A DNA stretch of 61,459 bases, filler included, from Sphacelaria rigidula (Eukaryota): the NCBI GenBank assembly GCA_964200075.2. It is 8 parts of 8 records of this genome, joined end to end, with 100 filler letters (N's around TTAATTAATTAA, not from the genome) between each part and the next. Parts side by side here need not be neighbours in the genome. Positions count along the whole stretch, not along the records: positions 7,697 to 15,292 come from CAXNAA020014176.1; 7 more parts are not named here. One strand, given 5' to 3'. Shown here piece after piece: positions 3,759 to 55,800 of the stretch (positions within the stretch are counted from its first letter, which is position 1; every line of letters begins with the position of its first letter). The notes beneath the pieces were generated by a model. The model searched no databases and was not told where the DNA came from. It worked only from the letters and a program-made list of their open reading frames with translations. The position numbers and the translations under genes are program-made.

Positions 3759-6669
3759 GACTATTACACCGTTTCTCCAACCACTGAGAAGGCGTAGTTG
3801 GACCATGAATGGCAGAGTCTTGCTATGAACTTGGGGGAGGACCCCCGCATGCTTCTTGATAGAGCAAAATTGATCAGGTATAACCGTGCGAGGCTTGGAG
3901 ACATAATACCAGATTCAGATGCCAACCGGCACTACATACGCCGCCTGTCACCTGATTTCGAAATCTCGCGCGGCGTACTGCTTGCCATGAACGAAGTAAC
4001 CACAGAGACCCTTGAGCGCATGGTGATGACGGCGCATGGAGAGACGGAACTGGCCAGGAGCAGGGCAGGCAGGGTCCTCGCGCTTTCAGGGCCACGCGCT
4101 CGTCGCTGCCGCTGGGGGTTGCAGAGGCAGGGACGTACTGCAAAACGGGCGACAGCAAGGTGGTGAGAGGCATCGGCAACAGAGTGATATTGTTTGTCAT
4201 TTTCACAATACGACCCAGCATGACGACTCTGAATGCAACGTACAACGAAACATGCACGCAAAAGCCAGTCGTGGTGATCGTGGTGCGTGGAATAGTGTTC
4301 GCCGGCAGCAATACCGTAGTGCAGACAGTTTTGGAGGTCGTGGGGGTAGCGGATGCGGTAGAATGCACACTCAATCATCGCAGCAGCTCATCCAGCAACA
4401 ACAACAGCAGCAACAACGCCAGCAACCACAACAGCGGCAGCACCCCCAGCAGCAGCAGTAGCAAGCGGGACGCGGAGGACGGGGCGCAGGGCGTGGACTT
4501 AGTCCCAGGTACGGTGGTTCGGGGTGCGGTAGCGGGGATGCCCATCCAGGCAGCCAGCTGCAGCATTATGATCCGCCGCAAGGTAGATATGACTACTCAG
4601 GTTATCCTGATGGTTTATACCGCCGTGTAGGCAAAGAACCCCCAATCTACCACGCAGACCCCCGTAAACGATGCATCGCATGCGATGAATTAGGCTACAT
4701 GCATACCTTTTGCCCATGGCGTAGAGTAGTGCGCCCGCAAGTCAATTCGGGGGTACGTCATGTGTATCCTGCCCACAGTCAACCTCATCACGGAGGGCAT
4801 CAGCTCCCCCCTTGGACCCATTCCTATGGATCGGTCAACACCGTACAACTGTACGATGACCAAGGGGGGTACGAAGAAAGCAGTCACATCGAGGAACACG
4901 GAAACGGAACGGAAGAAGACGGGTTGGTGTTGGAAGATAGCAGCAACTTCAGCGGTGCAGGTTACGCGCACTGTATCCAGTTTCCCCGCAATCCCCCGCA
5001 ATCCTCGGCAGCCGCCACCAACAACTAGATCCAGTCACCACCGCAGCAAGGTAAACTTCAACTGCAACACCCTCATCAACTACACCAGCAGCAACCACCT
5101 CATCATGCTCAACCTGATTCCAATCTGCCTTCCTCCGGTTCAGCCGCATCCTCTGCGCCGCTTCACCTGTGCATGGCACATACTGTGTCACAAGGCGAGT
5201 CACGTTTTGAGTTGGATGATTTCAATTTGGGGGTTGCTTTGCTTAATCAGAGTTGATCGGGGGTTGATGTGGGTGATGGTACAGAGGAGTGGATAGCGGA
5301 TAATGGTGCTTCATACCATACGACTGGTTCAATGAGTAGTATGTTTGATCTACGCCCCCCTCCGAAAGGAACTGAACACGTGATCGTGGGGAATGGAACA
5401 ATTCTCCCTGTCCGAGCAGTAGGGAGTTTGAAGCTCAAATTTCACATGGCAAATTCCACCACCCCAATAGCTATCGATGCGTCCTCAGACCTTTGCGTGC
5501 AGCTAGCTGATGTTTACGTTCTTGAAGGTATACATTTCAACCTTTTTCCTCTGCACCAAGTGCAGAAAAAACAGGATGTACTTTTGACTGAAACAGGGGT
5601 ACATATGTTTGACGGTCAGCTTCGCTTCGATCGCAATGAGCGGTCTTCATTTTCTGAGTGAAGGAATGGGAGTTGTGACTGAAAACGGGACGGCCCTGGC
5701 TGTTCTTGCCCTCAGCTCTCGCCCATTTTCAGCTGGAAACCGTAACAAGAAGTCGACATTAATTTGTTTCACGTTTCCCTTCCTCACATCCATGAGACGT
5801 TATTCCAAGAAACTGTGAAACAACAGGGTATTACTTTGACGGGGGTACTGGCGCCATGTACGGGATGTTTGGAAGCGAAGGAACAGAGAGCATGTATTCC
5901 GCGAGGACTGGGGACGAGGGCAAAACCTGTACTTGGCACCGTGCATCTCGACCTCACAGGCCCACACCCTCGTACACCGGGTGCATCAACTCATATGCTG
6001 GGCTGCGTCGACAGCAAGCCGCGCTTCATGATGCTTTATGGCAACGCACGTGAGTCTGACACGCTGGCGAAGGTGAAACGTTTCATTGCCGACGTCAGCG
6101 CCATCGGTACCCCCATTTGTTTTCGCATGGACAACGGGGGCGAATTCACCTCCAACGATTTCGGTGCCTTCTGCGACGATGCAACGATTCATCGTGAGTA
6201 CACTGCCCCCGACACTCCGAAGCACAACGCTGTGGTCGAAAATGAAATTTGGAGGATCATGAAGGGGGGCCACGCAGCCCGTCTCGAAGCGTGACGTCTG
6301 TTACCGGAGTGCCGCTTCGACGACATACCTCACCTGGGGGAGAACATGGAGCGTCTATGGCTGAAGGACGCGGTGTGGGTAGCGGACGGGTTCAATCGTT
6401 CCGCCACCACGGCGAATCCGGGAAGGCTGTCGCCTTGTGAATTGTTCACCGGCAAGCCCGCCGCTACAGATTGTGCCGTTTCTGCAACCCGGCATGATGT
6501 GGGTCAACCGCCGAGGGAAGATGGGTGTCCAGTCCGTGGCCTGCTATTATCTCAATAATGGCAGTAACCATTCTTCATCGATGGTGAAGGTCCTGAAGGC
6601 TGCTACCGGTGTAGTCTGCTACACGAAAAACGTTATCTAGACGGTACCACGTGTGCCAATGTAATCGTC

Positions 6670-8965: not shown

Positions 8966-9577
8966 GCATGTCGTCACAACTTGCTTGCTGCAGGGTAGAA
9001 AGTATGCGCACCGTTTTTTTTCAATTCGCCATCTTCGACCTCGAAAGACGCTACTGATCCTGAACCAAAAAGTGCCGATCGCGCAACGCTTGCAACTCGG
9101 CAGCAAAGCGGGGGATTGGACTGCGGTTTCTTGCGTGCGCTTTCCACACACCCCAGCTACGTCGCCAAGTTTGGTTTTTGCGTTTGCGCGTGATGCTGAT
9201 TCCCAAATAACCCAAACATACTAAAATGAGTTGTTCTCTGCGCTGGGGGGAGATTTCCAGACCGCTGACGCGACGCGAGCAAGATATCAAACTAGGTCCC
9301 CTAGATCTCGTGTGTATGGGGGGGGCTGTGAAGTGCCGTGGACCGGCTTGCTTCCTGTGTCGAGAACCGAGCGAACTCCAGTGTACAGCTTCCACATACA
9401 AAACTAACCTAATTAGTGATGGCGCATATGTTTTGTTCGTGAGGGCTCCGGCACAGGTCCGACCACCTATTGACATGTTCATTATTCCTTCGCGTTATTT
9501 TGTATTTCAACTCTTGTGTCGAATTTTGGTCGTCAGGGTCCTCATTCCTACGCATAACTGTGCAATCTGTACGGCGG

Positions 9578-10320
9578 ACATTACACAACTGCAATACGAA
9601 ACCTTTTATTAATTGACATGGATCATAGGTAAATGATACCGTTCCCTTCATGCAGCATGAATCAAGCGTACATACTCCTCACCTTTCATTATTTTGAGGT
9701 GAATCAAGCGCGCATGTTCCCCGGTTTCCCCAATCACACCCTAGTGTTCTCCGCCTTTTGTTCATACCAGGTGCATCAAGCGTACATCTTCCCGAATTTC
9801 CTTTCAGACATGAAATCATGCGTACATGTTCCCCACCTCCGTTCATACAAGGTGAATTGGATGTATCTCTTTACGTGTGATTAATGCGAGATTAATCAAG
9901 TGTACATATTTTCCACAAGTGATTCATACATCAGTTTGTGACTGAGCACATTACACAACTGCAATACGAAACCTTTCATTAATTGACATGGATCATAGGT
10001 AAATGATACCGTTCCCTTCATGCAGCATGAATCAAGCGTACATGCTCCCCACCTTTCATTATTTTGAGGTGAATCAAGCGCGCATGTTCCCCGGTTTCCC
10101 TTTATGCAGCATAAATCACACCCTAGTGTCCTCCGCATTTTGTCCATACCAGGTGCATCAAGCGTACATCTTCCCGTATTTCCATTCAGACATGAATCAT
10201 GCGTACATGTTCCCCACCTCCGTTCATACAAGGTGAATTGGATGTATATCTTTACGTGTGATTAATGCGAGATTAATCAAGTGTACATGTTTCCCAAAAG
10301 TTATTCATATATCAGTTGTG
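9578..10320. repeat. 370-bp tandem duplication built from ~40-bp GAATCAAGCGTACAT sub-repeats
   Basis: ACATTACACAACTGCAATACGAAACC at 9578 and 9948, with near-identical continuation. Confidence 0.9.
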
Positions 10321-11494
10321 ATTCAGCAATATTTTTCACTCTTGATTCGTGTGGCGCTACTTGAAATGTACACATTCCCAGTTCGTGGTTCGTGCGGTAC
10401 GGTCTTGAGCGTACAACTTCACAACCCTGTGACTCACACGATATGACGCTTTGATACATCATTTGAATGAAATATTTATGAAGAGTCAACCCGTATGAAC
10501 TCTGATTCGTTCGAATCGGGAAATGGGGTAGACTGAGAGAAAGAGAAGAGAAAAGAGTATCTGAAACTTACCGGCCTCTGCAAGATGGCTTCGGCGGCAA
10601 AGATGTTGCTTGCGCAGAAGCACACAGCCATACCCAATCGTGAGAACAGGAGGCCGCGGGATCAGGTTGCGGCTTATTCATGTAGGCCTCACTATCCTGG
10701 GTATGAAGCTCTCATCTATGAACATAACGAGAGCAAGGCATCAAACTACTACTTCCATGCACCGGGAGGAAAGAGTACATGTATATACCTATAGAAAGAA
10801 ATGAGGAAAGAAAGAGAAGGCAAAGGAAGAGACTCTGAGGTAATGAAACCCGACAGATAGCATTCCAATTTTACTTAGTGAAGTTGGTTTCTGCTCAGAT
10901 TCCACTATCCGACTTCTTCCGACTCGATTTTTGCCACTCGTTTTTTGCCAGATTCTTTTACTCTACAAACCCTATTGATTTCGTTCTTTGGGGTGGACTT
11001 TGTCAAACAGAAACCAAACGCATGTTGCTCTAAGGGGCACCTGGACACAGCAGTTGCTGCTGCCTACCTAGTATCATCCTACGAATCGAAGTCTTGAGTG
11101 AGGGCGCCCAGCGTGTAGTTGCTTGACGCGACCACTGCGTTCTGCAACGGACCCTTGCCCATGTACCCGACAAGGGGGCAACATCCCCGTACAGACAGTA
11201 GTGCTAGCGGATCCTACGTCCACCCAGTCTGGCAGCCGGCAACGTGGTTTTTTGAGTGTCGTACTAGCGATATCAACTTACAGTGCACTCGAGCAGAGTT
11301 TCCAGGTGAAGATGATGGCGATCGCCTCACCCGCGATTCGCCCAGATGTGTAGATTTTTTTACGATTTCACTAAGTAACATTACATACATCTACAAATGT
11401 ACCAGGCTTTGCACTATACGTCAAAATGCACCAGACTGTGAACAAAGATTTCTACCGTCAATACGAACACGATGCTAAACGTGTACTGCGCACA

Positions 11495-11600: not shown

Positions 11601-12124
11601 GGTTTCTGGGAAGGCACCCATTACAGGGGCGAAGGCGGCCATTCACTCCTGCATGCGCCACCTGGGGCAAACGCACGCTGTAGCTGCAACACGGACAGCT
11701 TGACAACATGTGGTGTAGCGATATAGCGCGTAGCGAGGGGTGATATCCCACGTACACGTTGGCCGCAGGTACAAGCGGCTGCCATCATAATGTGGCGAAC
11801 TGCATAGGACAGCGCGAAACCAATGCAGGATAGGGATAGGCTAAGGATGTCACGTCCTGCGGTGTGCTTTGTTACCCTGCACCCTGCCGCTGTGCAGTAA
11901 GAATGTAGTACCGCCGATGGCGTCACGCTGCCGTTGGTTGGTACGCAGTGTACGCAGTGTCAAACACAGCAGCAAGCCATATTTTAAATACATGAACGCG
12001 CGTTCCAAGACCGATGCGCGCACACACAGCAACTACTATCGCCATCATAGATCGATCAGGGGGGTAACCCCCCTCCTCAGATAGGGTACCCGGGGTCCCT
12101 CCCCCTCCCTCTCCTTCCCCCTCA

Positions 12125-12175
12125 ATGGTCATACGACTAAGGCAAGCAACAAATGAGTACGCCCCCCCCCCCCGT
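12125..12175 (+). repeat. Dispersed high-copy repeat (ACGACTAAGGCAAGCAACAAATGAGTACG + poly-C); also ~53970-54130(-), ~60010-60250, degenerate at ~30800, ~38480, ~46000-46230
   Basis: Near-identical motif at several places, often at contig ends. Confidence 0.75.
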
Positions 12176-13835
12176 CCTACGGCACCAGAATGAGGTTTCG
12201 GCGACATGGGGAGGGGGTTGTGCCGTCATTTTCCGATATGGAGCCCCTCGGCTGAACGTGCAGCTGCCCGACGCTTGACGTTGCCTCCTGTCTGCTCGAC
12301 AGTTATTTGCAATGTATGGTGTATGGCATACCGGGAAGCAAGTCCTGTACATGTACTTGAAAACAGGCATGGAAGCGGCTGGGACTAGTGCCAGACGAAC
12401 CAGCGAGAATTTGCTGGGAAACGACTCGCGTCCCAGCGCTGGCTTGCTGTGGGCCCTTGCAAATGCAGGGCGGCGGCGATAACACGAACACGATTTATGC
12501 TTCAATACAACTTTACGCTTCCGTGCAAGGACACGTCACCATACCTCGGGTACGTGCGGCAGACCTTCATTTTCGAGCCACTTCTTAGGAGGGCCCAGCC
12601 GGTACCACTCCGGGTTTATCGCCGCAATTCAAAAGCGCAACGTTACAAACACCGAAGTGGAATGAAATTGGAAACGCCCTGAGCACAGGGCAATCCATAC
12701 AGTGAAACAAGTACAAAACCACACCAGGGAACACCGGAAAATCACCAACCGGAGACACAATCAACATTCGTTTGGAAAAGAAAGGAGTACATCGGTTTCC
12801 ATGCTTGGCCAATTTCTCGCATTCATCCCTGATCAGGCGCAAAGCGGGCAATTCTTTCGGTCTTTTTCATCTTGGATTTGTCGCAGCTGTTGCTCTTACT
12901 GTGCTAGCGAGGGAAGTTGTCCAATCGGCGGCCCATGACGCATCAGGCCCTCGTTTGTGGCGGTGCCTTTGCGTCGCTACGTGTCCTCGAACTCTTCCAC
13001 CCCTTTTCGACTCCAACATGCCGTTCGCCTTCGCGGCAGTGACCCAATCGTGCGCGTTTGCACCGCCACACCGTAAACGACCCATTTCCGTCGCGCTCCT
13101 AAGCGTGTGGTGGAGCTCCTAGTGCACGTGGGTATCTTCTGGAGGTTTTCCCCACAGTCTTTTGGGGCGGCGGCCAGCCTCCTTAGGCCCTTGTGCGGCT
13201 GACAGTCCGTGGTGATGCCTTTGGACAGGCGCGTTTCGTTCTACAGGACAAGCCTCCCCCGTGAACCATAGTTGACGCTGCGGTACATTTTCTGTTGGTT
13301 ATCTTGGGCACAGCTCTGTGCGGAAGAGTCTTGCAGGCCGTTCGATTTTCCTGCAGGATCCAACCACGTGTAGCAAAAGTTGGTGATGTGCAGTGTGCAG
13401 ACTGTCGATGTCCTCGGAACGTACGGTCCATGTGGCACATCGGTTCGAAAGAGCTTCCGCCACCTATGCTTTGAGCAGTCGAACCTCCAAAGATAGCTGG
13501 GCGTTGATATGGTTGTGGAGTGGGGAACGATACTTTCGGAGACGTGCCCACGGCACGCTGATGCGGCGGTTGATACAGAGGGAAACCTTCGTATCCACGC
13601 TGGCAGCACGAAGGTAGACAGAGTTGGTTGTCTGCTTATACCGTTGACTTGCCGCGCTGATATGCAGGGCGATCGCTGTGGAACTGATTACTAACCACAG
13701 GTGCATGTTACTTTCGTTTTTACACTGTCGTCAGGTGGAGCAGTGAAACAAATGACAAAGGAAGTGCACATAAGCAGCGTTACGTAGACCCGTCGTTGGA
13801 TACTGTACGAGACTGAAAACCTCACGTCTGCAGAG

Positions 13836-15292
13836 AGGTGGAGGTCTGCTCACAGCACGCCGAGAACGGTATAGTGGATATTCAACGAAAGGCGTCCTGC
13901 AGGGAGGGCCGCTTCAAGATAGCGTCGTTTGGGCTGGCGGGAAGCGGAAGAGAGAGTTCTGCTCACAGCATGCCGAGGACAGAATTGTGAATGTCAGGAA
14001 CAAGTTGTGGGCCGCAGAGAGGGCTGCTTTATAACCCCGTCGTTTGGGTTGGCGGGAAGCAAAAAGGCGGAGTTTTGCTCACAGCACGCCGAGGACGGAA
14101 TGGTGAATGTCAAGAACAAGACGTGCTGCAGAGAGGGCTGCTTCAAGCGGGCGTCGTTTGGGTTGGCCAGAAGCAAGAAGGCGGAGTTTTGCTCACGGCA
14201 TGCCGAGGGCGGGATGGTTAATGTCGTCAAAAAGACGTGCCGCAGAGAGGGCTGCTCCAAGATAGCGTCGTTTGGGTTGGCAGGAAGCAGAAAGGTGGAA
14301 TTATGCCCACAACACGCCGGAGATGGGATGGTGTATGTCAGGAGCGAGTCGTGCTTTAGAGAGGGCTGCTTGAAGATTCTGTCGTTTGGGTTGGCGGGAA
14401 GCAAGAAGGCGGAGTTCTGCTCACAGCACGCCGAGAACGGGATGGTAAATGTCGTCAAGAAGACCTGCTGCAGAGAGGGCTGCTTGAAAAAAGCGTACTG
14501 GGGGATGGCGGGAAGCAAGAAGGCGGAGTTCTGCCCACAGCACGCCGAGGACGGGATGGTGAACGTCGTCAAAAAGACCTGCTGCAGAGAGGGCTGCTTG
14601 AAGATACCGTCGTTTGGGTTGGCGGGAAGCAAGAAGGCGGAGTTCTGCTCACAGCACGCCAGGGACGGCATGGTGAATGTCCTCAACAAGTTGTGCTGCA
14701 GAGAGGGCTGCTCGAAGATACCGTCGTTTGGGTTGGCGGGAAGCAAGAAGGCGGAGTTCTGCTCACAGCACGCCGAGGACGGGATGGTAAATGTCGTCAA
14801 AAAGACCTGCTGCAGAGAGGGCTGCTTGAGGATGCCGTCGTTTGGGTTGGCGGGAAGCAGGAAGGCGGAGTTCTGTTCACAGCACGCCGAGGACGGAATG
14901 ATGAATGTCGTCAAGAAGACGTGCTGCAGGGAGGGCTGCTTCAAGATGGCGTCGTTTGGGCTGGCGGGAAGCAAGAAGGCGGAGTTCTGCCCACAGCACG
15001 CCGAGGACGGGATGGTGAATGTCGTCAACAAGACGTGCAGCAGAGGGGGCTGCCTCAAGCGACCGTCGTTTGGGTTGGTGGGAAGCAAGAAGGCGGAGTT
15101 CTGCTCACAGCACGCCGAGGACGGGATGGGGAATGTCGTCAACAAGACGTGCTACAAAGAGGTCTGCTTGAAAAGAGCGTATTGGGCGTTGGCGGGAAGC
15201 AGGGAGGCAGAGTTTTGCTCAAAGCATGCCGGAGACGGAATGGTCAATATCAAGAACAAGACGTGCTGCAGAGGGGGCTGCTTGAAAAGAGC
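13836..15292 (+). CDS. EsV-1-7 cysteine-rich repeat protein (partial; the 5' repeats are frameshifted, so possibly a pseudogene)
   Basis: 11 complete plus 1 partial in-frame 114-bp/38-aa units from 14010 (consensus CCREGCLKIPSFGLAGSKKAEFCSQHAEDGMVNVVKKT), matching the EsV-1-7 pattern C-X4-C-X16-C-X2-H-X12. About 1.5 frameshifted units lie at 13836-14009. Runs off the contig at 15292. Confidence 0.92.
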
Positions 15293-15456
15293 NNNNNNNN
15301 NNNNNNNNNNNNNNNNNNNNNNNNNNNNNNNNNNNNTTAATTAATTAANNNNNNNNNNNNNNNNNNNNNNNNNNNNNNNNNNNNNNNNNNNNCGGGGCGT
15401 CGTCTCGAAAGGGGACTGGATTGAATGCGCAAACCACTCCGGCCAGCAACGAATCA

Positions 15457-21229: not shown

Positions 21230-21680
21230 CGATGCTCCTGGCGTGCGCAGGATGCGTTTTTGTCTTAATCGCCTCCTGGGGCGCCGATTTGAGTCTGGCA
21301 ACGCACACTCTGCCTAGGGAACACTTTCACGGTTGGGACGAACCACTTTCCGGTTCGAATCACCAAATCCACGGAATCTCAGGCCTGATTGATCGAAAGC
21401 TAAAAAACAAAAAAGTTGACCGCTGGTCTAAAAGGTCTGTTTCCACGCAATTTTTGCGCCCTATTCCACGTGCCTGGGCTGCGCGTACAGTACCTGGGTT
21501 GCAACGCTGAAAACAAAGCATAATGGGTGATTCGTACCGTACGAATCAATCACACTAAAATCAAGTAATTTCCAGACGAATCATTAATTCGTTCGACCCT
21601 TGAACACTTTGCGCACCCCTTGCCCGAGGGTTCTTGGTATGCCTTCGTTAGGGCTAGGGTTAGGGCTAGGGTTAGGGTTT
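21230..21680 (+). repeat. Second dispersed family carrying (TTAGGG)n; relatives at ~52125-52270(+) and ~55100-55270(-)
   Basis: Shared GCACACT...CC.GGG...CCCGAGGGTTCT.GG.ATGCCT motif immediately followed by TTAGGG-like repeats. Confidence 0.65.
21328..21602. mobile_element. hAT-type MITE, copy 2, with perfect 8-bp TSD AACACTTT, nested in a telomeric-repeat-bearing element
   Basis: Imperfect TIRs CACGGTTGGGACGAA...TTCGTTCGACCCTTG. AACACTTT at 21320-21327 and 21603-21610. Confidence 0.88.
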
Positions 21681-24009: not shown

Positions 24010-27000
24010 GTGGATATACAATGGTCAAGGTCGCCTTGGCTTCTCGACCGTCGCGGCTAACTGCTTCTACAACTTTACTCACACTCACGAGTTTGGGCAC
24101 AACATGGGAGGGCACCACAATCGTGAGGACAGCAATTGGGATACGGAGTACTCGCATGGAAAACGATACTGCTCCGGCAGCGCACCGTGAGTGGTGCTAT
24201 ATAGTGTGTGCTGGGATGGTAGTGTTGTGTGATGTCAAACCAGCCTTAATATCGTATTCAAGATACTACTGACGCAATAGTCTGTTCAGGTCCAGCGCTA
24301 GATCTAATGTAAGCTGCAGTATGTAGCCTCTTACATGGGTGCAATACCGCACCGTAACAAACCATGCAAACACATCACACGGATCTACCGGCTGTGCCAT
24401 CTGCTTTATAAAAAAAAGGTTACGTCGAGGTACTGCGTTTATAGCGTTGGAGTAGTGGCCGCCGCGCCACGGTGGTGTAATGGTCCGACTGTCGCCATTT
24501 GGGTGGAGAGAGTGGGGGTTCGATTCCCGATGCGTTGGGTTTTTTATTTGTAGTGTTTGATTCTCACCGTTAGCAGNNNNNNNNNNGATTCCCACCGTGG
24601 AAAGCGTGAGAACGTGAGTAAACAAAACGTAGTCGACTGGGTTCGTGTGACGTGGGTTGACGCGGTGCGGGAGTGCTGATCCAATCCGCGAGATCAAAAT
24701 GAAAGGCACGTACCGGGGGAGAGATGGGTTGATCCCATGAGGCCACGGACTCATCCCGAGGAAGGGGAGGGGTTTAAAGTGTGAGGAAAAAACGAAAGTA
24801 GTGGTGATGGGAGGCAACCGTACACGCATGGCACCATTGCTCTGTATTGCGTTCGCACATGATTCATTTGGGTATATATATATGCCATTTCCGATCCGTA
24901 GAGGTTCCCACGCTTGAGCTGTGTTCAATTTGCGGCCGTTCCGTCGATCACCATGCGTTTTCGTTTTCGTCAGGCTGTTCCGGACGGTGATGACCTACCG
25001 GAACCAATGCTACGCAGCCCAGGTCATCAATTACTTCTCTAACCCGGAGATAGACTACCTCGGAAAGGCCACCGGATCTTCCACAGAAAACAACGCTAGG
25101 ACCGTCAGAGAAAATATGGTGAAAATCGCAGTGGTCGATACGTCATCATCCACGTCGTCGCGCCTCTGATGCGGATCCTGAAACAACTATGCGTCGTTTC
25201 TTTAGGTCTGGGATGCCCAGCACCATATAACTGTAGCTGTGCGAGATATTTAAATTGTCCTTATGTCGCATCGGATTTCCACAGGAAACAGTCTCGAACT
25301 GGAGGGCCCCTGTCGACACGCCTGCCCCCACGCCTTCTCCAACCCTGGCTCCACCCGAGAAATACTCATACGTGGGATGCTTCGCTGACTCGAAAGACGA
25401 CCGCGTGTTGAGTGGGACCTCCTTCAAGAACCAAGACGCATTGACCATCGAAGTAAGAGAATGATAACGTCGTGTGAATGCATACTTCATTGGTTCTCGA
25501 TGTACAGGTTCTGGACCATGATTTTAGAGTAGCCCAGCGACAAAGAGATAAAAAAATGTCACGACTCGAAGATAATCCAACCCCCGGGAAGGCGTATTTG
25601 TCATGTCCACAGGTTGGAGGAATACGAGACTATCTGCTCGCCAGGTGAAGAGTTCTTTGTAAGAGCATGACGTCGGCGCTGATTTCTTGGGTCCAGAGGG
25701 GCCAAACCGTCGCGTCTCCGGTTATCACGTGGCGTTGATCACATGAAGGTATACTAATGGACCAGGAACAATCCCCTTTGGACGACCCTTGAAGAACAAC
25801 ATCGACACCGTGTCCTTGCTTCGTCACCAACATCGCACTTTTTGATGGCCACGGTATCCCCGCTCGCTTTATCCGCCGTCCGCCCGCGTTGCTGCGCGTC
25901 CCACCTGTACCACCACGCTGCGAAGTCGTGCGCCACTTCGTGCGAAGGATCTGCGTACTTCGGCACTCAGTTTGGCGAAGAGTGCTACTGCAGCTCTGGA
26001 TCTGACGAGCTAGACAGCCTCGGGGAAGCCACTTGCAATATGGAGTGCTCTGGGGACGATAGTGAAACTTGCGGCGGCCGCCTCGCCATTAGCGTGTATG
26101 AGTACACGGGATATGCAGGGTGCTTCGTGGACAATGTAAGGGACCGTGTGCTCACCGCTGGTTCCTTCGTGGACGACGAAATGACCGCGGAGGTGAGGGA
26201 AGCCGGTGCAACCATACCTGGAATGATATAGATATGCGGCAACAGAAAGCTTAGGGGTATGCACCTCCTACCGTCTACTCGTTGTCCGCCATTTTGAGCC
26301 CCGGTGTTCAGGGGGGATTTTACATGTAGTAACATCAGACTGCATGGCGAACAGCTGCACCGACAAGTCATCATAGACCATACACCCGCTGCCTTGCAAC
26401 AAGCAAAGCGACCTTGACTCAAAACATGGTAGCTAAGTGCATATCATACCAATATTCGCCACCGATCTTGGGTACATCTCCAGCTAACCGCTCGTGGCAC
26501 GTATAGACTAACATGTTACCCAAACACTTGTTTGTCTCGCCGTGGACACACAGGTATGCGCGGCGTTATGTGAATATGCCCCTTTCTACGGAACCCAGTT
26601 TGGAAAAGAGGTGAGAAGCGACAGGCGACAATCATTCTCCCCCGCCCGCTGTGAGCCGTGGTTGCTCATACGCCAGCTGCCAGCTCATGCGAAGATCATC
26701 TCTGCTGATATGTAAAGGCCATCATATACAACAATCGTAGCCGATGTTGGCAGTTTATGCCACAGTCAACCAAGAGCCAGACTGACGAAGCGGGTGCTGA
26801 GCAGGGCGTGTATTATGGAAGGCAGTGTGGTCGATGGCGTGGTGTGGTGTACGTGGTGGAATTCGCCGTAGAAGCCCCCGAGGAGCGCAATGGCACCCGA
26901 AAAAATCACATCCTGATGCAAAAAGGACATCCAGATCGACGGGTTGCTAGGCGTGGCAACACCAGCGACATTTCCCGAGACTATCGAGTTGATAATGTGT

Positions 27001-30000
27001 GATCCGCTGTTTCGCACTGTGTCGTTGAATATTCGTCGCCCTTGTTCATACTACGTAACCCCCCCCCCCCCTTCAACAGTGCTTCTGCGGTGCCGGTGGG
27101 GATGACTTCGACCGCCTCGGCGAATCTACAGCCTGCACAATAGGCTGCTCCGGAGACGACAGCACGACGTGCGGTGGTCGCAACGCCATAAGCGTTTACT
27201 ACGGCGATTCAACCCCTGAGCCCACGCCAGCACCTACACCTGCGCCAGTCTCCGATCCGGGGGGGGAAGAATACACCTATCTGGGGTGCTTCGCCGACTC
27301 GGTCGTTGATCGTGTGCTGTCCGTATCAGCATCATTCAACGATGTTGAGTTGACCATTGATGTGAGGAAGAGTGAACCCTTTTACCGTTAGATCTCAAAC
27401 CTTTAGCACTAGTTGTTATCGTGCTCACTTCATGATTTGTTGCAGCACACCAACTCGCGCGACTCCATGATGAGTTATGGTGACATTGTCGCCTTCTGTC
27501 GTGAAGGATCAGATTCAAGGAAGATCGACAGCAGGGAAAACTGGGGCGAGACGCTACTACTGGCACTTCGGGTAGAATGTTGTGCTATTACACATGCTTG
27601 CCCATCGCTAACATGACGCGCTCCGTGCCCCTTGTGATTTTTACTGTAGGCGTGTGCCGATGCTTGCGAGGGATATGTGTTCTTCGGGACGGAGTTCGGC
27701 ACCGAGGTGAGCACAGCTGAGGCATCATTTGTCCTGCAGGATGTGCGTGTCATGGTTTGCCATATCCCGTTGCGACATTTTCCCAGATCCAGGTATTACG
27801 ACCGCTGTTCAGGATATGCGTGTACCATACAGCGGTGTCTTGTAGCAGCCGTTACGCCAGGAGGCCGACCTCGTAGACAGCTGGGGTCGGTGATTTGTTC
27901 AATCGGCACCAGGTACACTTGAAAAAGGATATCAAATTATGCATATGCAAGAGATCGACTACCCGGGCGGTAGATGGGTTAACATCTACGAACTTTGTCC
28001 AGCTCTGCGTGATACCATGTCGTCGTTCTTGGATATCGTCACCGTTCGAACCGAAAACTTAGTCGGGCTGCTCGTTTTCCGCACGTGCATCCGGTGCCGA
28101 TGGTGCAGATCCCATCCTCTTAGCACTAACGCAGCAGCCGCCTGCCACCTCTCTCAACAGTTTCTGCTCCTCCCGTATCTGTCTATACCTCACAGTGCTT
28201 CTGTGGAATGGCATCGGACGACCCCGACCGCCTCGGCGACGCCACGTGCAACATGGACTGCTCCGGCGACGCCAGCGAGACGTGCGGCGGGCGAAACGCG
28301 ATCAGCGTGTACGAGTTCACGGATTCCCCCTCGGGGTACGCGGGCTGCTTCGTGGACAGCGGTAGCGATCGTGTGCTCACCGGCCAATTCCTCAAGAATG
28401 AACCTACTATGAGCTTGACGGTACGAAAATGATCAATAGATGTGATGTGTGGTTCTACAGACAACATCTGTCTATGGTTTGTCCGTTTGGCTGCAGCTGT
28501 GATGACCAAGAGATCAACCCAGCGTTACATTCGGGAGTCTACATCCATCTGACTGGTGTTTGTCTTCAACGACAGAACGCAACATATATATATATATATA
28601 TATATCGACCACGTGTATTACCGCTAATATGAGTAACACGGTTCTAGATCTCGTAATTGCGTGTTGCATCATACTCGCGTACACACCACCTACGTGGAAA
28701 CACGTGCTCCGTCAGCTGATGTACTAACCTCCACTTCCGTGTGATTATTCAATACAGGTCTGCGCGACATTCTGTAGCGGTGCTCCCTTTTATGGGACAG
28801 AATTCGGAAAGGAGGTGAGTAACCTCATGTTTACCTATCATATGGCTGATCCAATTTTCTCGCACGTTTCTCGACTAGCCGACCGACCGTGGGAACGACA
28901 GAGTCTGTGGGTCAGTAGCCTCGGATACGCCCGTGTCGCGTATGTCGACCTTCTCTATCTTCCAGTCCTTGTCCAGCGAATTCCGTCCGGAACACTTTAC
29001 TTCCCCTCTGAGCCTGCTTTGATCACACCGATAGCCACCCTCTTTCCCTCCAACATGCAGACTTCTACATCACCATATGTGTCACACGCTGTTCATGTGT
29101 CACGATTCGTTATGACTCCCTACTCGCAGTGCTTCTGTGGTGTCAACGGAGATAACTTCGACCGTCTCGGCGAATCCAGCGCATGCACAATGAATTGTGC
29201 CGGCGACGACAGCAAGATCTGCGGTGGGCGCAGCGCGATTAGTGTATACTACGGCGACTCCATGCCCACCACTCCGACCTACCTCGGATGTTACGAGGAC
29301 GAGAGCAACAGCCGCATTTTCACTGAGAGGATCGCCGTGGACGCCGCGGCCATGACCACCGAGGTGAGCTGCAAACAGCAGGGGATACTCATGTAGTTCC
29401 TCACGCCAACCAATTCATGTGTACACTGTAGAAGAATGCTCAAGAACGAATGCCACGTCTTCCGTGTCTACTCTTGTCCCGGTTCCCACCAATTTCACTT
29501 CGCCATCTTGCCAACACAGAAGAGCATGGTGGCTGTTCTATTTATGATACCGGTTGATCCTCACAGAGGACGATGTGCTTGGTCACCACACTGACTGTGT
29601 TGTATCTGCGTGTTCGCGGAGAAATCCAACACCATACCTCAATTTCTGATGCCATTGACCAAGATCTGCCGCTCCTGTCGACCGTTCATTTCCGTTTGTC
29701 CTTAAAATTCTAGCTATGCGAGGATGCATGCAGGGGCTACGCCTTCTTCGGGACGCAGTATGGTCAAGAGGTAAGTGCACGATTTGTGCTAGCTGTTGTC
29801 CAACGGTGCAGCCAACCGATATACATTGCTATCAACGGAGCCGAGAAAAGTGGATAACGTGCTTTGTCTTCTTTCGTTGTCTGCCCTTCATCCATTCGTC
29901 TGTATTCTACGACACGTCACCTTCAAGTGCTGCGTACGTTGTAAATGTTTCCCGTAACTAACTTCCAGTGCTGGTGTGGTGATGCGTCTACGGACTACGA

Positions 30001-49300: not shown

Positions 49301-51301
49301 GCCGTTGGATACGACCATGCAACTGGTTGTAAATACAGACAAGCCGGACGTCCGGCTGGTGATACACTCCGGTATACCCAAGACGGTGGAGTCGTACTAC
49401 CAGCAGACCGGGAGAGCGGGGAGAGATGGGCTTCCGGCAAAATGCGTACTGTTGTTTTCCCGAGCGGACGCCGTAAAACAGAAGAGGTGAGCGCAGCGCC
49501 AACACGAGGCGTCGAAGGTGGTACTGGGTAGGGTACCGTACCCCAGGTATTGTGAGGTTCCACGGTCTCCTTCAGTATCAAGTACCGCAGGGTACCTGGG
49601 GTATTAACCGATGAAAATATTCAGAGCTTGTCGCGGAATAACGGACGGGTAATAGCACGAAACGGGACGGGACGGGGCAGGACGGGACGGGACGGGAATG
49701 ATCGTCCCGTCTCGTCGTGGTTTTGGCGACAGAAACACGTTGCCGTCCCGTTTCATCGTTTTCTCGGCAATGGCAAACAAGTCCCTGTCCAGTTTCGCAT
49801 CTTTTTGGCGCGAGAAAACTTTCATGTCTTGCTCCAACGACACGAGGAAATTCCCGATGTTTTTTAGGGGAATTATTGTCAGATTAAACGGGGGCCTCCG
49901 TCAATTGCATGGGAGGTTTTGTCCAATCTGTTGGGAAATTGAGTATATATTTGAACGTGTTCGATGTGGGATCATATATTCAATTATTTTCGGCCTTCGA
50001 CTCTTCCCGCAGCCCGTCCTTACATATCACATGATGAGCGGACGACATGTCACGGAACTTCCAGATGGGACGGGACTTATCGTCCCCATATGCGTACTGC
50101 ACTGGACTGTACGAGACTGTTTTCCCGTCGCCATCATGAGTCGTTATCGGATGTCGCACCCCGAAACCGATGATTACTTCTTGGTGAATTTGTCCAGGCA
50201 TCGCTGCACTCAATTTTGGCGTCGTCTTGATTTTTTCGCGGGGATCACTCACATATTTTCCATGAAGATGAGACGAAACGGCGTAAAACCGGACAGAACG
50301 AATCAGGAAAATGCCACGGGAATGTTCTCGAAATTCCCGCCCCGTCTGTCCCCAAAATAATTAATCCCGTTCCGGTTCCCCGTTTTTCGCCACGGAAAAA
50401 TTGTTCCCATCCCGTCTTTTTTCCTGGCAACGGGAAATCGTTCCCATCCCGTCCTGTCCTGTCCCGACGTCCTATGACAAGTCCGTGAGAGATCGAAATT
50501 GTCCTGATGAAACGGGCAGGGGAGCGGGTGATAACATGTTCCTGTGATCGTAAGAATATCGCCAATGCTGCAGTCGTGAAGTTTGAATTCTTCAGAATGA
50601 TGTACAGTACGGCGCGCCGTCTATTAGTGCGATGGAGTTCGTTGCTCGAGGCTACTCCCCCGTCTGTTGAGCTTGAATGAATCCATCGGTGGGGCGGGTA
50701 TCTACTATGGAAGTCGCTTTTGACCATGAAGGCTGTAGTCCCATCACAATGATTTACTCTGAGATCACACCCCCAGTGCGATTGCTCATGATTCAGAGGA
50801 ACCCTCCGGGTACGGTGGGGTGCGATACTGGTGCGATTCAGCACCTCAGGTATAGTACCCTGACCTAGTACTCGACATTTTCGGTAGTGGATATGTGCCC
50901 TCGTGCAAAATCAGAGAAAGGTACATGACAGGCGTACCTTACCCTTATCACGTCAGGAACGATGTCGGGAATACCTGGCATGTTTGGTCAATTACACTGG
51001 AGAACCAGGGTACCCTCGGGGTACGGTACCCTACCCTCACTGCCTTCGCAAGCCAAAACGCCCCCCGCCCTTATTCTGATCGCATCAGCTGATGTCACCC
51101 TGAAATTTATGCGCGCGCGACTTGTACATAATTATGCGCGCGCGACGTGGTACAGCATCATTGCCATGTCTACCACGGGCGCCCCCACATCGCCTGCGGT
51201 CGTGGAGCGCGACCTGAAGCTCTTGGCTGCTATGGAGAAGTTCGCCACGGCACCCGATTGCCGGCGGAAAGCACTTCTGGGGTACTTTGGAGAGGACATG
51301 G
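46328..51301 (+). CDS. RecQ-family DNA helicase, internal exons 46328-46447, 47086-47190, 47986-48022, 49339-49486, 51156-51301
   Basis: Motifs [56 protein letters not shown] and the Zn-binding CRRKALLGYFGE. Frames join correctly. Confidence 0.95.
49526..51042. mobile_element. Nested TIR elements in the RecQ intron (outer TIR GGGTAGGGTACCGTACCCC; inner ~49622-50488 with GGGAC/GTCCC subterminal repeats)
   Basis: 49526-49544 is the reverse complement of 51018-51036. The right end reads CAGTG on the minus strand (hAT-like). Confidence 0.65.
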
Positions 51302-52763
51302 GTGAGACAGACACCGGCCTCGATTTTTTCGGAGAGGGGGGGAAGTGGCCGGGGAAAAGCTATTTCTACTCCAGTGTACATCGGTCAGGAAGGTTTTGAA
51401 TTTGTAAATAAGATGCTTCACCTTTTTTTGTCAAAAATATCGTATACTACTGGCCAAAAATTGGGTATGGCAGGTATCCGGCTGAACAACTTGAGGCTAA
51501 AAAATCGTGCTCGAGGAAAATATAGACTTGAAAATATACCTACCTGTTTGAGGCAAGGTACGGAGCTCTTTGGGGCACGGTAGAGGTACAAGAGGAATCT
51601 GCTGGATAATCTGCAATTTCGCGGCTATGCTAAGAAAACTTCATGTTTGTTTTCGATCTATTTTTCTTGCAGCGTGTGTGTAAAATGATGCCACACTGCG
51701 TGTTGTCGGTAAAAACGACTGCAACCCGGTCGAGTGCACGCTATATTTTCGCGTCGCCGAAACGTTTTCGTCGACCACCTGTACCCGAATGTAGCCCGAA
51801 ACAGCAAGATGTATCTTTTCCCGGCCACTGCCCTCTTTTCTTCGTGTTCATTACTGTAGTCTCAAACCTCATTCCACTCTCTTCCTCTCAGGATAAGTCC
51901 GTAGCTCCGAGGGATCCATTGACAAGGTATAGATACCTTTTCCTGTCCACTGCGCTCTTGCTTCGTGTTTCATGTGCTCGTCACATTCTCAGCTCTCCAT
52001 TTTCCGCTCGGGATAGTAGAGTTGACGCGAATCGATCGAGGAATCCCATGGTTGAAAGCAAACACTTGGTTTCCGTGTAGATGATCAAGTTCGGACCTTT
52101 TGGGGGATGACATTCCCAGGTGCCCGCTAGCGTTCGCAGGGTGCGTTTTTGCTTCGATTGGCGCCTCCAGCGCCGATTTCAGCTGTTCCTACGCACACTT
52201 CGCCCAGGACATGACATGCATCCCCCTTACCCGAGGGTTCTCGGAATGCTTGGGATTGGGGTTGGGGGGATAGCGTCATCGTCATGATTTGACAAAATCA
52301 AGGTACATTATGTTCAACGATGGAAATTGTTCAGCAGTTCGCGTAAGCGTCCCTCTCTCGAAACGAGTCCTAGTGCCAAAAAGTCGATTGGCCCATCTCT
52401 TGCATTACGGCGCCTGCCTTGCACGTTGTTTCCGATTGGGCGCTTGGATCAGCACTGTCAGTACGACCACAGTCCCGCCCACGTTTTACAGGATTTCATC
52501 GCTGTATGGATATACTTCGCACGTGTATCTTTGCCATCTCTTATTCTCACGTTTTCTGATGATGGAAAACGTAAACACAAAGTGAGATTAACACGGCTCT
52601 GGATGCTTTCGGGATTGTAACAAATCCAAAACCTTCGCCCGAACCAGTGCTGGATATACTGTGGCGGAAATCGCAACACTTTTTGAGGCAAGTGTTGGTT
52701 TGGTGCGCCAGTTTCATCAACGAGGAACGGCGGCACTCTTTTCTCCCCCGTGGTGCTGTGATA

Positions 52764-52804
<41 letters not shown>

Positions 52805-55800
52805 TCCCCCGCCGCCTCCCTCTTTCTTGCTCTTNNNNNNNNNNTTGGTTTGGGGCGCCAGTTTTCTCCACGAGGGCCGGGGGCCCTCTTTTCCCCCCCC
52901 TGGGGTTTTGAGAAGGCCCCCCCCCCCCCCCCCCCCCCCCATTGTATTTTCCCATCGGTTGTTCATTTTGTTCTCGATCGATGGCTTTGCGGTGCTCCCT
53001 GGTGTGTGTCTACCTGCTCCACGGTACCGTGTCCTCTGGGCTACATCACATGTGTAGCCTCCTTCTCGGGTCTCTATTCCTCTCCCCATATCTGCCTCTA
53101 AGAGTGCGTTATTTCGTCCCGGTGTATGCAAATATAATAGCAGGTTGGTGCCTCGCTTTCGTACGGTTCATAAATGAGATCTTCGTACCCCAAATAGTGA
53201 GGTCGAAATAGATTAGACGCAATTTCTCCCACGGCATTTTTGTTTTTGACGATTGGGTATAAGAGTGTGTGTTTTTTTGCGAAATATTGCCCTCCGACGC
53301 CATGGTGCAGAGGCTGGTCATTTTTTTATTTTTCGTCTCAGTCAACTCCGTATGCTCTACCTTCCTCTTGTTCTTCACTTCTCTTCAGCGAGTGCTCCCG
53401 CTTGATTTTTACGTCGAGTGCGTCTATCATGCGACCAGGGCTGGATTCCTGGGGGAAAACATAAAGTGCGACAATGAGTCAATCAAATCAGTCGGGGTGG
53501 TTCAAAATTCGTTGTGATGGGTAATAACACGGTTAGTACGCAGGGCGCACCACGATTTATTTTCGGGCCAAACAGTGTTTCGTGTTTCGTGGCCATGCTG
53601 CTGGAAATCGTACACAGGGCCACCTCTAGGGCGGTTTTTGGTTGGTTTGGTCGTACTACACGCAAGGAAATTGGTATGTCGCCTGTGTACAGTGCTGTGC
53701 CCGTGGCCATCTCGTGTGTCTCCCCCCCCCCCCCCCCCCCCCCCCCCCCGTGTGGGGGGGGGGCGNNNNNNNNNNNNNNNNNNNNNNNNNNNNNNNNNNN
53801 NNNNNNNNNTTAATTAATTAANNNNNNNNNNNNNNNNNNNNNNNNNNNNNNNNNNNNNNNNNNNNGCATACTTTTTTTCACTTGAAATTGATGCCGATTC
53901 AACAGAAGATTAACCTCGCGATCCAAGGGTTAAAGTTTCATACGCAAGTATGTGTGCCATCGTTGCACCCCAGGGGGGCGTACTCATTCGTTGCTTGCCT
54001 TGGTCGTGTGACAATTGACCACGCATCCCTTTCGAGACGGAGCAACCCCATGGGGGGGGGGGGGGGACTCATGATCATGCATGCCATAGTCATAAGACCA
54101 TTGATGTACAAAGCCGGGACGGAGCACGCCGGGTTTTCGCCGGACCCGACTGGCAATCAATCACCAATCGCGAATCGATGTGATGTGTTCGACGAGTCGC
54201 ATGAAGGATGAGCTGCATCATGCCGAGATTGTTCGGCCCGAAGCATACTGGTCATCTCGCATTCGGGTGGCAGTTTGCAAAGAGTTGCTTTACTTTCTGG
54301 TATCGCCATATCCAGGGACAGTCATGGCTTACCCACTGCCTCATTGTTTTTTCACCATTTAAACACTACGGAGTATGATCACCCCCTTTGCGCGGAAGAG
54401 AGGTTCTCCCACTCTGCACAATATGATCTAGCTTGACCGCCATCACGGCTACCGCAAAAACCCCACAAGCGCGCAGAAGAAATCGGCACTCTGGTTGCCT
54501 AGTTTACGCCGCAAGTAGCGTGTATTACAGCGTCATTGCCGACCGATGCCAACCCTGTAGGGGGTCCGGTCCGTCCCTGCAAAGCCAGGACGGAGCACGC
54601 CGAGTTATGGCCGGACCAGGTCCATACAAGGGAGGGGGGGGGGGATGCTAAGAGTTACTACAGACGGAGATCCTCACGCCATCAGCCATATCCTGCTCTT
54701 TCCGAAATTCTGGCCTGATTTTCTGATGAAACCAAGTGAGATTTCTCACGAGAAGGCGACGTTGAAAGTAAGTGGTGCGCAGAGGGGAAACTGTCGAACT
54801 TTGGTGAGGGTACCGTCCACGCACTGGTGAGCGGGAAATTTAAATCACCCACCGCAACAGCTTGCTCCCGTCACGGGGTGGACACCGGTACACGTTATTC
54901 GCACTTTGGAGCGTCCTTTGGTTATCGTCAAGTTGAACAGCAGGAGTACAGTATGAAACGGCATTGTACAACGGATGCCCCAGGAACTGGGCGGGTTTAC
55001 AACTGTCCCACGAGGCGACATAGCTTGCGATCGCAATCCGATTTGAGGTGTGTTCGCCACTTGGTCGATGAAGAACTTTCTCGAAAAGATACACTTAAAA
55101 ATAACCCTAACCCTAACCCTTACCCTAACCCCAGGCATACCCAGACCCCTCGGGCGACGGGGGTGTGAAGCGTTCCCCAGGCAAAGTGTGGCGTTAGCAG
55201 ACCTCAAAAACTGCGAAAAGCAGACCGCAGGCGCCGGTTTTGACGAAAACGCGTTGTGGGCACGCGAGGGGCAGTTGGGGCTGTCAGCCCCGCTAAAGAC
55301 CCGAATACCGGTGTTTGCACTCAAATCAAGGCTGGGAAGGTTCTAATCGACCAAGTTGCAAACACTACTGCCCGATTTACACTGTACGTACGTCGTTCAA
55401 CTTATCCATAGCGCTTGACAACCTAGAGATGCTCCAAAATGCGATCAACGTGTACCAGCGGCCACCCTTGCTGACGCTTGAAACATGTGATGAAGAAATG
55501 AGGCCGCTCTGTCGTACGCCCGTGTATCATGGGGCCAACGCGACTGCGGACGCGGCTCGCTACCAAGAATCACGTCACTAAGACACCGAGGACACTGAAT
55601 CTTGATTGCTACTTGGGGATACGCAATTCCGCTTCAAGAAACGGAGTCCCTTCAAAGGGCGCAAACTAGTTCCCAAGTACAGCGTAATACTGTATGAAGC
55701 TGTACAGTTCAGCACATCCATCACTGAAAAATCAATATTTGGCTCTGTTTCATGTTTGTCGAGAGTGGGGCGCTTCTGTATGTGGTGTGGACAGCATGTT

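Follow-up and report, generated by a model that had tools for sequence, protein, structure and literature searches.

The window analysed here is a stretch of 61,459 nucleotides from the brown alga Sphacelaria rigidula. Its main feature is an EsV-1-7 tandem array, which is listed in Table 1 together with its flanking features and four other features of the window.

Table 1. Features of the window (strand is left empty where none is given).
Feature	Position	Strand	Remarks
Short interstitial telomere-like hexamer repeats	297-345, 21647-21679, 55102-55131		
Retroelement integrase core fragment	5746-6291		under the Pfam cut-off
Upstream flank, probably intron	12790..13690	+	77-90% identity to nine contigs of close paralogs
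CTAAC branch-point-like motif, pyrimidine tract and AG acceptor	13691..13734	+	acceptor (13733-13734) invariant in 10/10 aligned copies
Start of large exon, about two decayed EsV-1-7 units	13735..14009	+	three-frame translation, tblastn, paralog alignment
Two shorter upstream ORFs	starts 13752 and 13970	+	out-of-frame ATGs
Upstream ORF, out of frame	13991..14221	+	76 codons; overlaps likely start codon 14100
Unit 1	14010..14123	+	Gly replaces C1; first in-frame ATG (14100) near its end
Units 2-11	14124..15263	+	38 codons each; all four ligands kept; net charge about +2.8 per unit
Start of unit 12	15264..15292	+	10 codons, then end of contig G000:C14176
Scaffold spacer	15293..15392	.	N44 + 12 bases + N44; DNA beyond it is not the array's continuation
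Two WSC-domain exons	25758-26228, 28728-29393		probably one gene
Exon with RecQ zinc-binding domain	50929-51396		

The array and its gene

Tandem Repeats Finder reported a 114-bp tandem array at 13836-15286 with 12.7 copies, 82% matches and a score of 1793. Pfam family PF19114 (EsV_1_7_cys) matched the array in 11 stretches (E 9e-169, 547 bits against a cut-off of 25), in agreement with the EsV-1-7 assignment made in the first-pass annotation. The same annotation counted at least 12 units of 114 bp in one frame. The tandem array stands, but the frame from 14010 contains 11 whole units followed by 10 codons.

We numbered the 38-residue unit from its first Cys, which places the ligands at C1, C6, C23 and H26. 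The pattern C-x4-C-x16-C-x2-H is complete in 10 of 10 units between 14124 and 15263, with a period of 38 residues. The ligands had been described as nearly fixed apart from the first Cys of unit 1, and units 2-11 indeed keep all four. The eleven words listed after the second Cys and the linker words were likewise all found in the sequence. The Pfam scan of the array returned no C2H2 family, and the ligands are Cys3-His, not Cys2-His2. Other Pfam rows on the array (DUF1490 and Rapsyn_N) had no passing stretch and are a product of the repetition; the NCBIfam search gave chance rows only. When units 2-11 were compared among themselves, pN was 0.146 and pS was 0.241. The locus is one copy of the known large EsV-1-7 gene family of brown algae.

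The variant AYW is present in both units 5 and 11, from which repeat shuffling had been proposed. Outside codons 7-14 these two units are 77% alike, compared with a mean of 83% over all pairs, and an origin of unit 11 as a full copy of unit 5 was rejected for this reason. Since AYW is carried on two such unlike backbones, patches move without whole units. The shuffling proposal thus holds for patches and unit order but not for copying of whole units.

The array probably continues on another contig, C14812 (L112). The final 20 bases of contig C14176 have a single occurrence in the window, and a comparison over 122 loci found them again only at the end of C14812. The first unit of C14812 is identical to unit 11 at 98 of 99 bases, and this near-identity is the likely cause of the assembly break. 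Read on the minus strand from the contig end, C14812 encodes 9 further units and a tail of 111 residues. The two closest paralogs, C18157 and C1629, are common to the 5′ flank in the window and the 3′ part of C14812. From these sequence matches, C14812 is probably the 3′ half of the window gene, and the whole protein would probably consist of 19 intact translated units and a short tail.

Upstream of the array, the flank that is probably an intron ends at a conserved acceptor (Table 1). We compared four sequencing runs over 11900-14590. The runs were available as contigs, and those used as RNA are RNA by guess only, as none is recorded as RNA. A 274-base contig of run X1 fits 13731-13933 without a difference, and its 71 preceding letters do not align. 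The DNA-like run X5 crosses the acceptor (13694-13940). An X2 contig matches 13918-14062 at a depth of 54 and an X7 contig matches 13918-14048 at a depth of 74, both without differences. Compared with the exon start at 13735..14009, the X1, X2 and X7 contigs have 0 differences. Cover of the upstream flank is patchy or absent in the probable RNA runs and full in the DNA-like run; over 12530-12889, the depth is 0-2.8 in X1, X2 and X7 and at least 56 in X5. The locus is likely transcribed and spliced, and the missing cover of the intron in the RNA runs is a weak hint in this direction. A short element of very high copy number at 12122-12177 is also deep in the probable RNA runs.

The decayed units, at about 13780-14009, pass through changing frames with an in-frame stop and indels (tblastn matches at 13832-14004), and 13735..14009 is probably 5′ untranslated. 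The earliest in-frame ATG is at 14100, preceded by three out-of-frame ATGs. Most of unit 1 lies ahead of 14100, and this unit is thus probably 5′ untranslated as well. Judged from the reading frame, translation would begin at 14100, leaving only 8 residues ahead of the first intact unit, the upstream exon not included. A donor candidate at 10662-10665 was rejected, as it is not kept in 4 of 4 aligned paralogs. A 370-bp tandem duplication at 9578-10328 lies within a block (9558-10788) common to four paralog loci, and it may contain a promoter or first exon.

Host origin is indicated by the conserved splice acceptor and by named homologs from brown algae, and no viral core family was found in 30 other ORFs of the window. 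A proviral origin was rejected on the acceptor and this negative result. The locus is a host gene of a brown alga and probably contains an intron.

The window copy could be a transcribed gene in decay that makes little or no protein, a reading compatible with any function of the family. Its upstream units contain a stop and indels, its upstream linker ATGs are lost, and the 76-codon ORF overlaps the ATG at 14100. Against this, units 2-11 and the 8 whole units of C14812 keep every ligand, the two halves are stop-free over 400 and 438 codons, and pN is lower than pS. Close paralogs have 5′ units in a similar state of decay before long open frames. We consider decay of this copy distinctly unlikely.

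Paralogs in the genome and relatives in giant viruses

The family search of the genome gave 4575 candidates, of which 150 were scored; many are in open frames of 500-1470 codons. We analysed 80 stretches on 79 different contigs, taken as best scorers or close paralogs, so the sample is biased to intact genes. Among the loci listed, the genes begin with a short start, continue with 7-29 units in one exon and end in a low-complexity tail, with no transposase domain after the arrays. Arrays are split over frames in 3 of 79 contigs. The array of L120 (G000:C923) extends over four frames, and this copy is a likely pseudogene. Between sister genes whose flanks are about 90% identical, the arrays differ both in the number of units and in their order. 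In the matches listed, shared flanks extend 1-2 kb or more beyond the stop without one common edge. This fits whole-gene duplication and argues against a transposon carrying the gene.

Tail statistics were based on 68 complete tails of at least 60 residues. The motif psi-K-x-E is present in 65 of them, with 121 motifs in total compared with a mean of 8.2 and a maximum of 17 in shuffled tails; the paralogs are related, so these counts are not independent. The last motif lies at most 35 residues from the end in 60 of the 65. A basic cluster is present in 56 of 68 tails, compared with 14.8 after shuffling. The first of these motifs corresponds to the SUMO consensus, and basic clusters serve as signals for import. 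For 16 paralog pairs, the tail has a pN of 0.142 and a pS of 0.174, with a flank divergence of 0.153; outside its motifs, the tail evolves fast. The nuclease motif described below is absent from 71 complete paralog tails, including that of C14812, and one viral query found no match to the nuclease in the contigs of this genome.

We examined the best 120 of 318 homologs, 119 of which have units. Among these matches, a C-terminal domain with the motif PD...ExDExQH is present in 40 of 119 and absent from 79 of 119. The motif is nearly invariant across 38 aligned proteins. When the domain of the viral homolog P0118 was compared with solved structures, the top matches were I-Bth0305I (Z 7.9, rmsd 3.5, 96 aligned) and Vsr (Z 7.8, rmsd 3.8, 113 aligned), both below the firm level of Z 8. 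Lower rows contained other PD-(D/E)XK nucleases, and the RAP-domain protein FASTKD4 tied with the top at Z 7.7. The top Foldseek rows were also PD-(D/E)XK nucleases, none with E ≤ 0.001. Pfam assigned no family to the domain, giving only DUF559 (E 0.1) and DUF2726 (E 0.016), each in 1 of 13 proteins, and Atlas leads for the domain were PvuRts1I-like and DUF559 at 0.85-0.88. No solved structure matched the viral alignment by sequence. UniProt already labels some of the viral relatives "Endonuclease".

Motif and model together suggest that in the giant-virus relatives the array is joined to a Vsr-like PD-(D/E)XK nuclease, in a layout like that of homing endonucleases. Like EDxHD homing endonucleases (I-Bth0305I) and Vsr, they would have N-terminal repeats and a C-terminal Vsr-like fold. 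They differ from I-Bth0305I in that their repeats are EsV-1-7 fingers and not NUMODs, the genes are free-standing and the motif is ExDExQH. The algal gene differs from homing endonucleases in having no nuclease.

The window array as a query gave no match in viral contigs, and at least 585 stretches of viral contigs encode relatives. In the viral loci kept (L123-L202), array and nuclease motif are in one frame in 80 of 80; as the nuclease motif served to find these loci, it is there by construction. The neighbour scan covered 78 of 107 proteins at 48 viral loci, near-duplicates and cut proteins having been dropped by hand. The gene for the giant-virus major capsid protein adjoins 18 of the 48 loci. 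Other neighbours include 8 core genes (polB, RNA polymerase subunits, TFIIS and VLTF3) and 9 nuclease-type genes. These neighbourhoods fit a mobile nuclease and also inherited linkage.

The psi-K-x-E motif was also counted in the homologs. After removal of 11 proteins whose tails match this genome, 61 homologs with a long tail and no nuclease were left, and 33 of them hold the motif (43 motifs compared with 5.0 after shuffling). The holders include proteins of Pylaiella, Ascophyllum and Laminaria. In contrast, it is present in 5 of 40 nuclease-bearing homologs, with 7 motifs compared with 10.9 after shuffling.

A second enzyme fusion is known from Ectocarpus, where the EsV-1-7 domain is N-terminal of a mariner transposase (Tc1/mariner, TcMar-2_Ec32; PMC12477816). 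This differs from the arrays of the loci listed here, which no transposase follows. Both known fusion partners, the Vsr-like nuclease and the mariner transposase, act on DNA, and in the reading that we favour the array lies along DNA. Among predicted viral structures, the array has additional matches to proteins labelled DNA primase and, weakly, to HNH endonuclease, and these suggest more fusions.

The array could instead read RNA in the manner of PPR or PUF repeats. A basic face suits any nucleic acid, and the Vsr fold is also found in RAP domains that act on RNA, such as the FASTKD4 match above. Yet the viral domain has the full PD...ExD..H motif and, in the manner of mobile DNA nucleases, is encoded next to core genes, and the transposase fusion again indicates DNA. 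RNA reading is very improbable in our view.

Variation along the unit and its predicted structure

The first-pass annotation proposed that variation is focused at a few positions, just after the second Cys (positions 7-12) and in the linker. In the window, position 9 has an entropy of 1.85 bits and position 2 one of 1.77; the values are 1.36-1.37 at positions 7, 10, 35 and 36 and 0.47-0.72 at positions 8, 11 and 12. Over 1212 strict units of 80 loci, position 36 has the highest entropy (3.31 bits), followed by 9 (3.23), 3 (3.00) and then 29, 35 and 38; within genes the rank is 36, 9, 35 and 38. Focused variation is certain, and it is located at position 9 and linker positions 35-38. The wider spread over 7-12 is not borne out, as 8, 11 and 12 have low entropy.

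Position 9 is unlike in 69% of adjacent units. Its residues in the 1212 units include Q (314), R (280), H (138), K (117), L (89) and I (63), with Asp or Glu in only 7. We compared acid counts with a neutral codon model matched to the rate of each site. Asp and Glu are depleted at position 9 (7 against 67-102 expected), at 35 (12 against 67-96) and at 38 (10 against 63-95). There is no clear depletion at position 36 (83 against 89-136), which tolerates acids and Gly. Extended strands are also expected to exclude Asp, Glu, Pro and Gly.

Per-position entropies correlate between the 318 viral units and the 1212 algal ones (Spearman 0.62). At position 9 the viral units have R, Q, I, H and K, as do the algal units. 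Position 11 is the most variable position in viral units (3.41 bits), whereas it is nearly fixed in algal units.

We then compared rates. In 589 disjoint pairs of adjacent units, pN/pS is 1.67 at position 9, 1.54 at 35 and 1.72 at 36, compared with 0.61 overall. In a colinear test of 170 matched units from 16 disjoint paralog pairs, pN relative to backbone pS is 2.1 (1.78-2.46) at position 9, 2.1 (1.72-2.49) at 36, 1.4 (1.01-1.85) at 35 and 1.1 at 7. pN at positions 8, 10, 11 and 37 is no higher than backbone pS. The backbone pS of 0.235 exceeds the flank divergence of 0.153, so this baseline is not depressed. When unit pairs were picked on half of the backbone, the ratio of pN at position 9 to pS on the remaining half was 1.8-2.5. 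Pairing of units by third-codon distance biases pS down and was left out.

Codon models with one synonymous rate gave an omega of 1.85-2.8 at position 9. When each codon had its own synonymous rate, omega was 0.87-1.65 (likelihood-ratio 1-10 over three models) and could not be separated from 1 in two of the three; at position 36 it was 0.60-1.47. The dN/dS check proposed earlier thus gives an excess at 9 and 36 against backbone pS but not in the site test with the codon's own rate, and values near 1 leave room for neutrality or patch conversion at both positions. Codons that changed by two or more bases make up 47-60% of changed codons at position 9, compared with 19-22% on the backbone. Diversifying selection at 9 and 36 is likely, although patch conversion can mimic such a signal.

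Several of these results would also be expected if the array bound DNA or chromatin with little sequence preference, as an affinity or spacer element, its variable sites being exposed and relaxed and old variants being moved by minisatellite conversion. The omega near 1 under codon-own rates, the tolerance of acids and Gly at position 36 and the frequent multi-base changes at position 9, which fit exchange of old patches, argue in this direction. So do the N-terminal repeats of I-Bth0305I, whose DNA contacts are largely non-specific (PMC3239194). However, the excess is limited to single codons, with pN at 8, 10, 11 and 37 not above backbone pS, and position 9 is restricted to long polar or basic residues in algae and viruses alike. 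We judge binding of such low specificity unlikely.

Four window units were modelled with 142 aligned rows (pLDDT 68, pTM 0.34), and the model of the viral homolog P0118 has a pLDDT of 86. In well-formed units of both models, beta-bridges are found at positions 38, 9 and 22; short strands span 12-14 and 31-33, and a 3-residue turn lies at the His. Neither model contains a recognition alpha-helix or a helical hairpin, only one 3-residue helical turn per unit. Likeness to C2H2-ZF, TALE and PPR arrays had been suggested earlier; it is confirmed for the layout and not for the fold. In the models, positions 38 and 9, each a single beta-bridge residue, probably pair across strands. If so, the two lists of variable residues in the first-pass annotation would form one patch.

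Predicted viral structures match the array well, the first being EsV-1-7 (E 5e-17). In contrast, matches of the unit to solved structures are weak. The top rows are RING and B-box (Z 2.2-3.1, with the pLDDT-68 model), at noise level on the scale of the tool, and THAP and WRKY folds are not among the matches listed. These top rows would suit a protein-binding scaffold of RING, B-box or LIM type, such as a variable receptor that recognises proteins of pathogens or viruses and whose patch reads peptides. Diversifying sites are also typical of immune receptors. We consider a peptide-reading scaffold quite improbable: the RING and B-box matches do not rise above noise, a nuclease and a transposase are the partners known from fusions, and the units have a net charge of about +2.8 and an acid-free face.

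A proposed DNA-reading array

The reading that we find best, and to which we give about an even chance, is a nuclear DNA-binding array whose target is tuned by the variable patch. Binding to DNA or nucleic acid is indicated indirectly, by analogy, from the fusions with nuclease and transposase and from the basic, acid-free positions. A code in which one unit reads one site, again by analogy, is a rather unlikely extension.

In the proposed mechanism, each 38-residue unit would bind one Zn through Cys3-His, as the spacing and invariance of the ligands suggest. A chain of units would lie along double-stranded DNA with its basic, acid-free face. Position 9 and linker residues 35-38, which lie just ahead of the first Cys, would form a patch that differs between units and tunes the bound sequence. 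Gain, loss and re-ordering of units and exchange of patches would allow rapid change of target. In giant viruses the array would guide the Vsr-like nuclease. In algae the nuclease would be replaced by a disordered tail with import-signal-like basic clusters and psi-K-x-E. With such a nuclease-free tail carrying basic clusters and SUMO-consensus motifs, the algal proteins would not cut but would attach to chromatin and bring in regulators, in a mode of action comparable to that of tandem C2H2 families in animals. Zn binding, nuclear location, DNA binding, specificity and SUMOylation are all read from sequence here.

The family and the idea of a zinc-finger transcription factor are already in print, and the DNA-reading idea is not new. 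Published passages propose EsV-1-7 proteins as zinc-finger transcription factors and suggest a possible new zinc-finger class. They also describe EsV-1-7 genes as the largest orthogroup of brown algae, one of them a developmental regulator, and define IMMEDIATE UPRIGHT orthologues by a unique N-terminal IMM domain. The gene described here has the same 38-residue Cys3-His repeat as Ectocarpus IMMEDIATE UPRIGHT and viral EsV-1-7 and belongs to the same large brown-algal family. It differs from IMMEDIATE UPRIGHT in that the loci listed have long single-exon arrays (7-29 units) and probably no long N-terminal domain, and from the published family in the psi-K-x-E tail, which those passages do not mention.

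What is added here is the viral nuclease fusion, the algal tail motifs, the site-focused rates and the turnover of arrays. The literature searched holds no published account of the array-nuclease fusion, the psi-K-x-E tail or the site rates; Macaisne et al. 2017 and preprint supplements, outside that search, may already note the fusion.

The likeness of the algal family to KRAB-ZNF, fish FiNZ-ZNF (PMC10547256) and PRDM9 lies in many lineage-specific paralogs, a single-exon finger minisatellite, turnover of unit number and order, few fast positions and a short accessory region. Unlike C2H2 families and PRDM9, the algal arrays have Cys3-His ligands, a 38-residue period, no recognition helix in the models and no KRAB or SET. 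A bolder proposal, doubtful at present, is that EsV-1-7 is an independently evolved programmable DNA-reading module, with its code at positions 9 and 35-38. Viruses would use it to aim nucleases. Algae would have dropped the nuclease and gained the SUMO-motif tail, giving a family that, like KRAB zinc fingers, silences transposons or inserted viruses.

The single locus is an ordinary member, and its value is in the family. The general zinc-finger guess is turned into named specifics: the residues to swap, the tail lysines, and the viral nuclease as a read-out. If the code were true, EsV-1-7 would be a new programmable DNA-binding scaffold and would provide a parallel, outside animals, to the conflict between zinc fingers and transposons.
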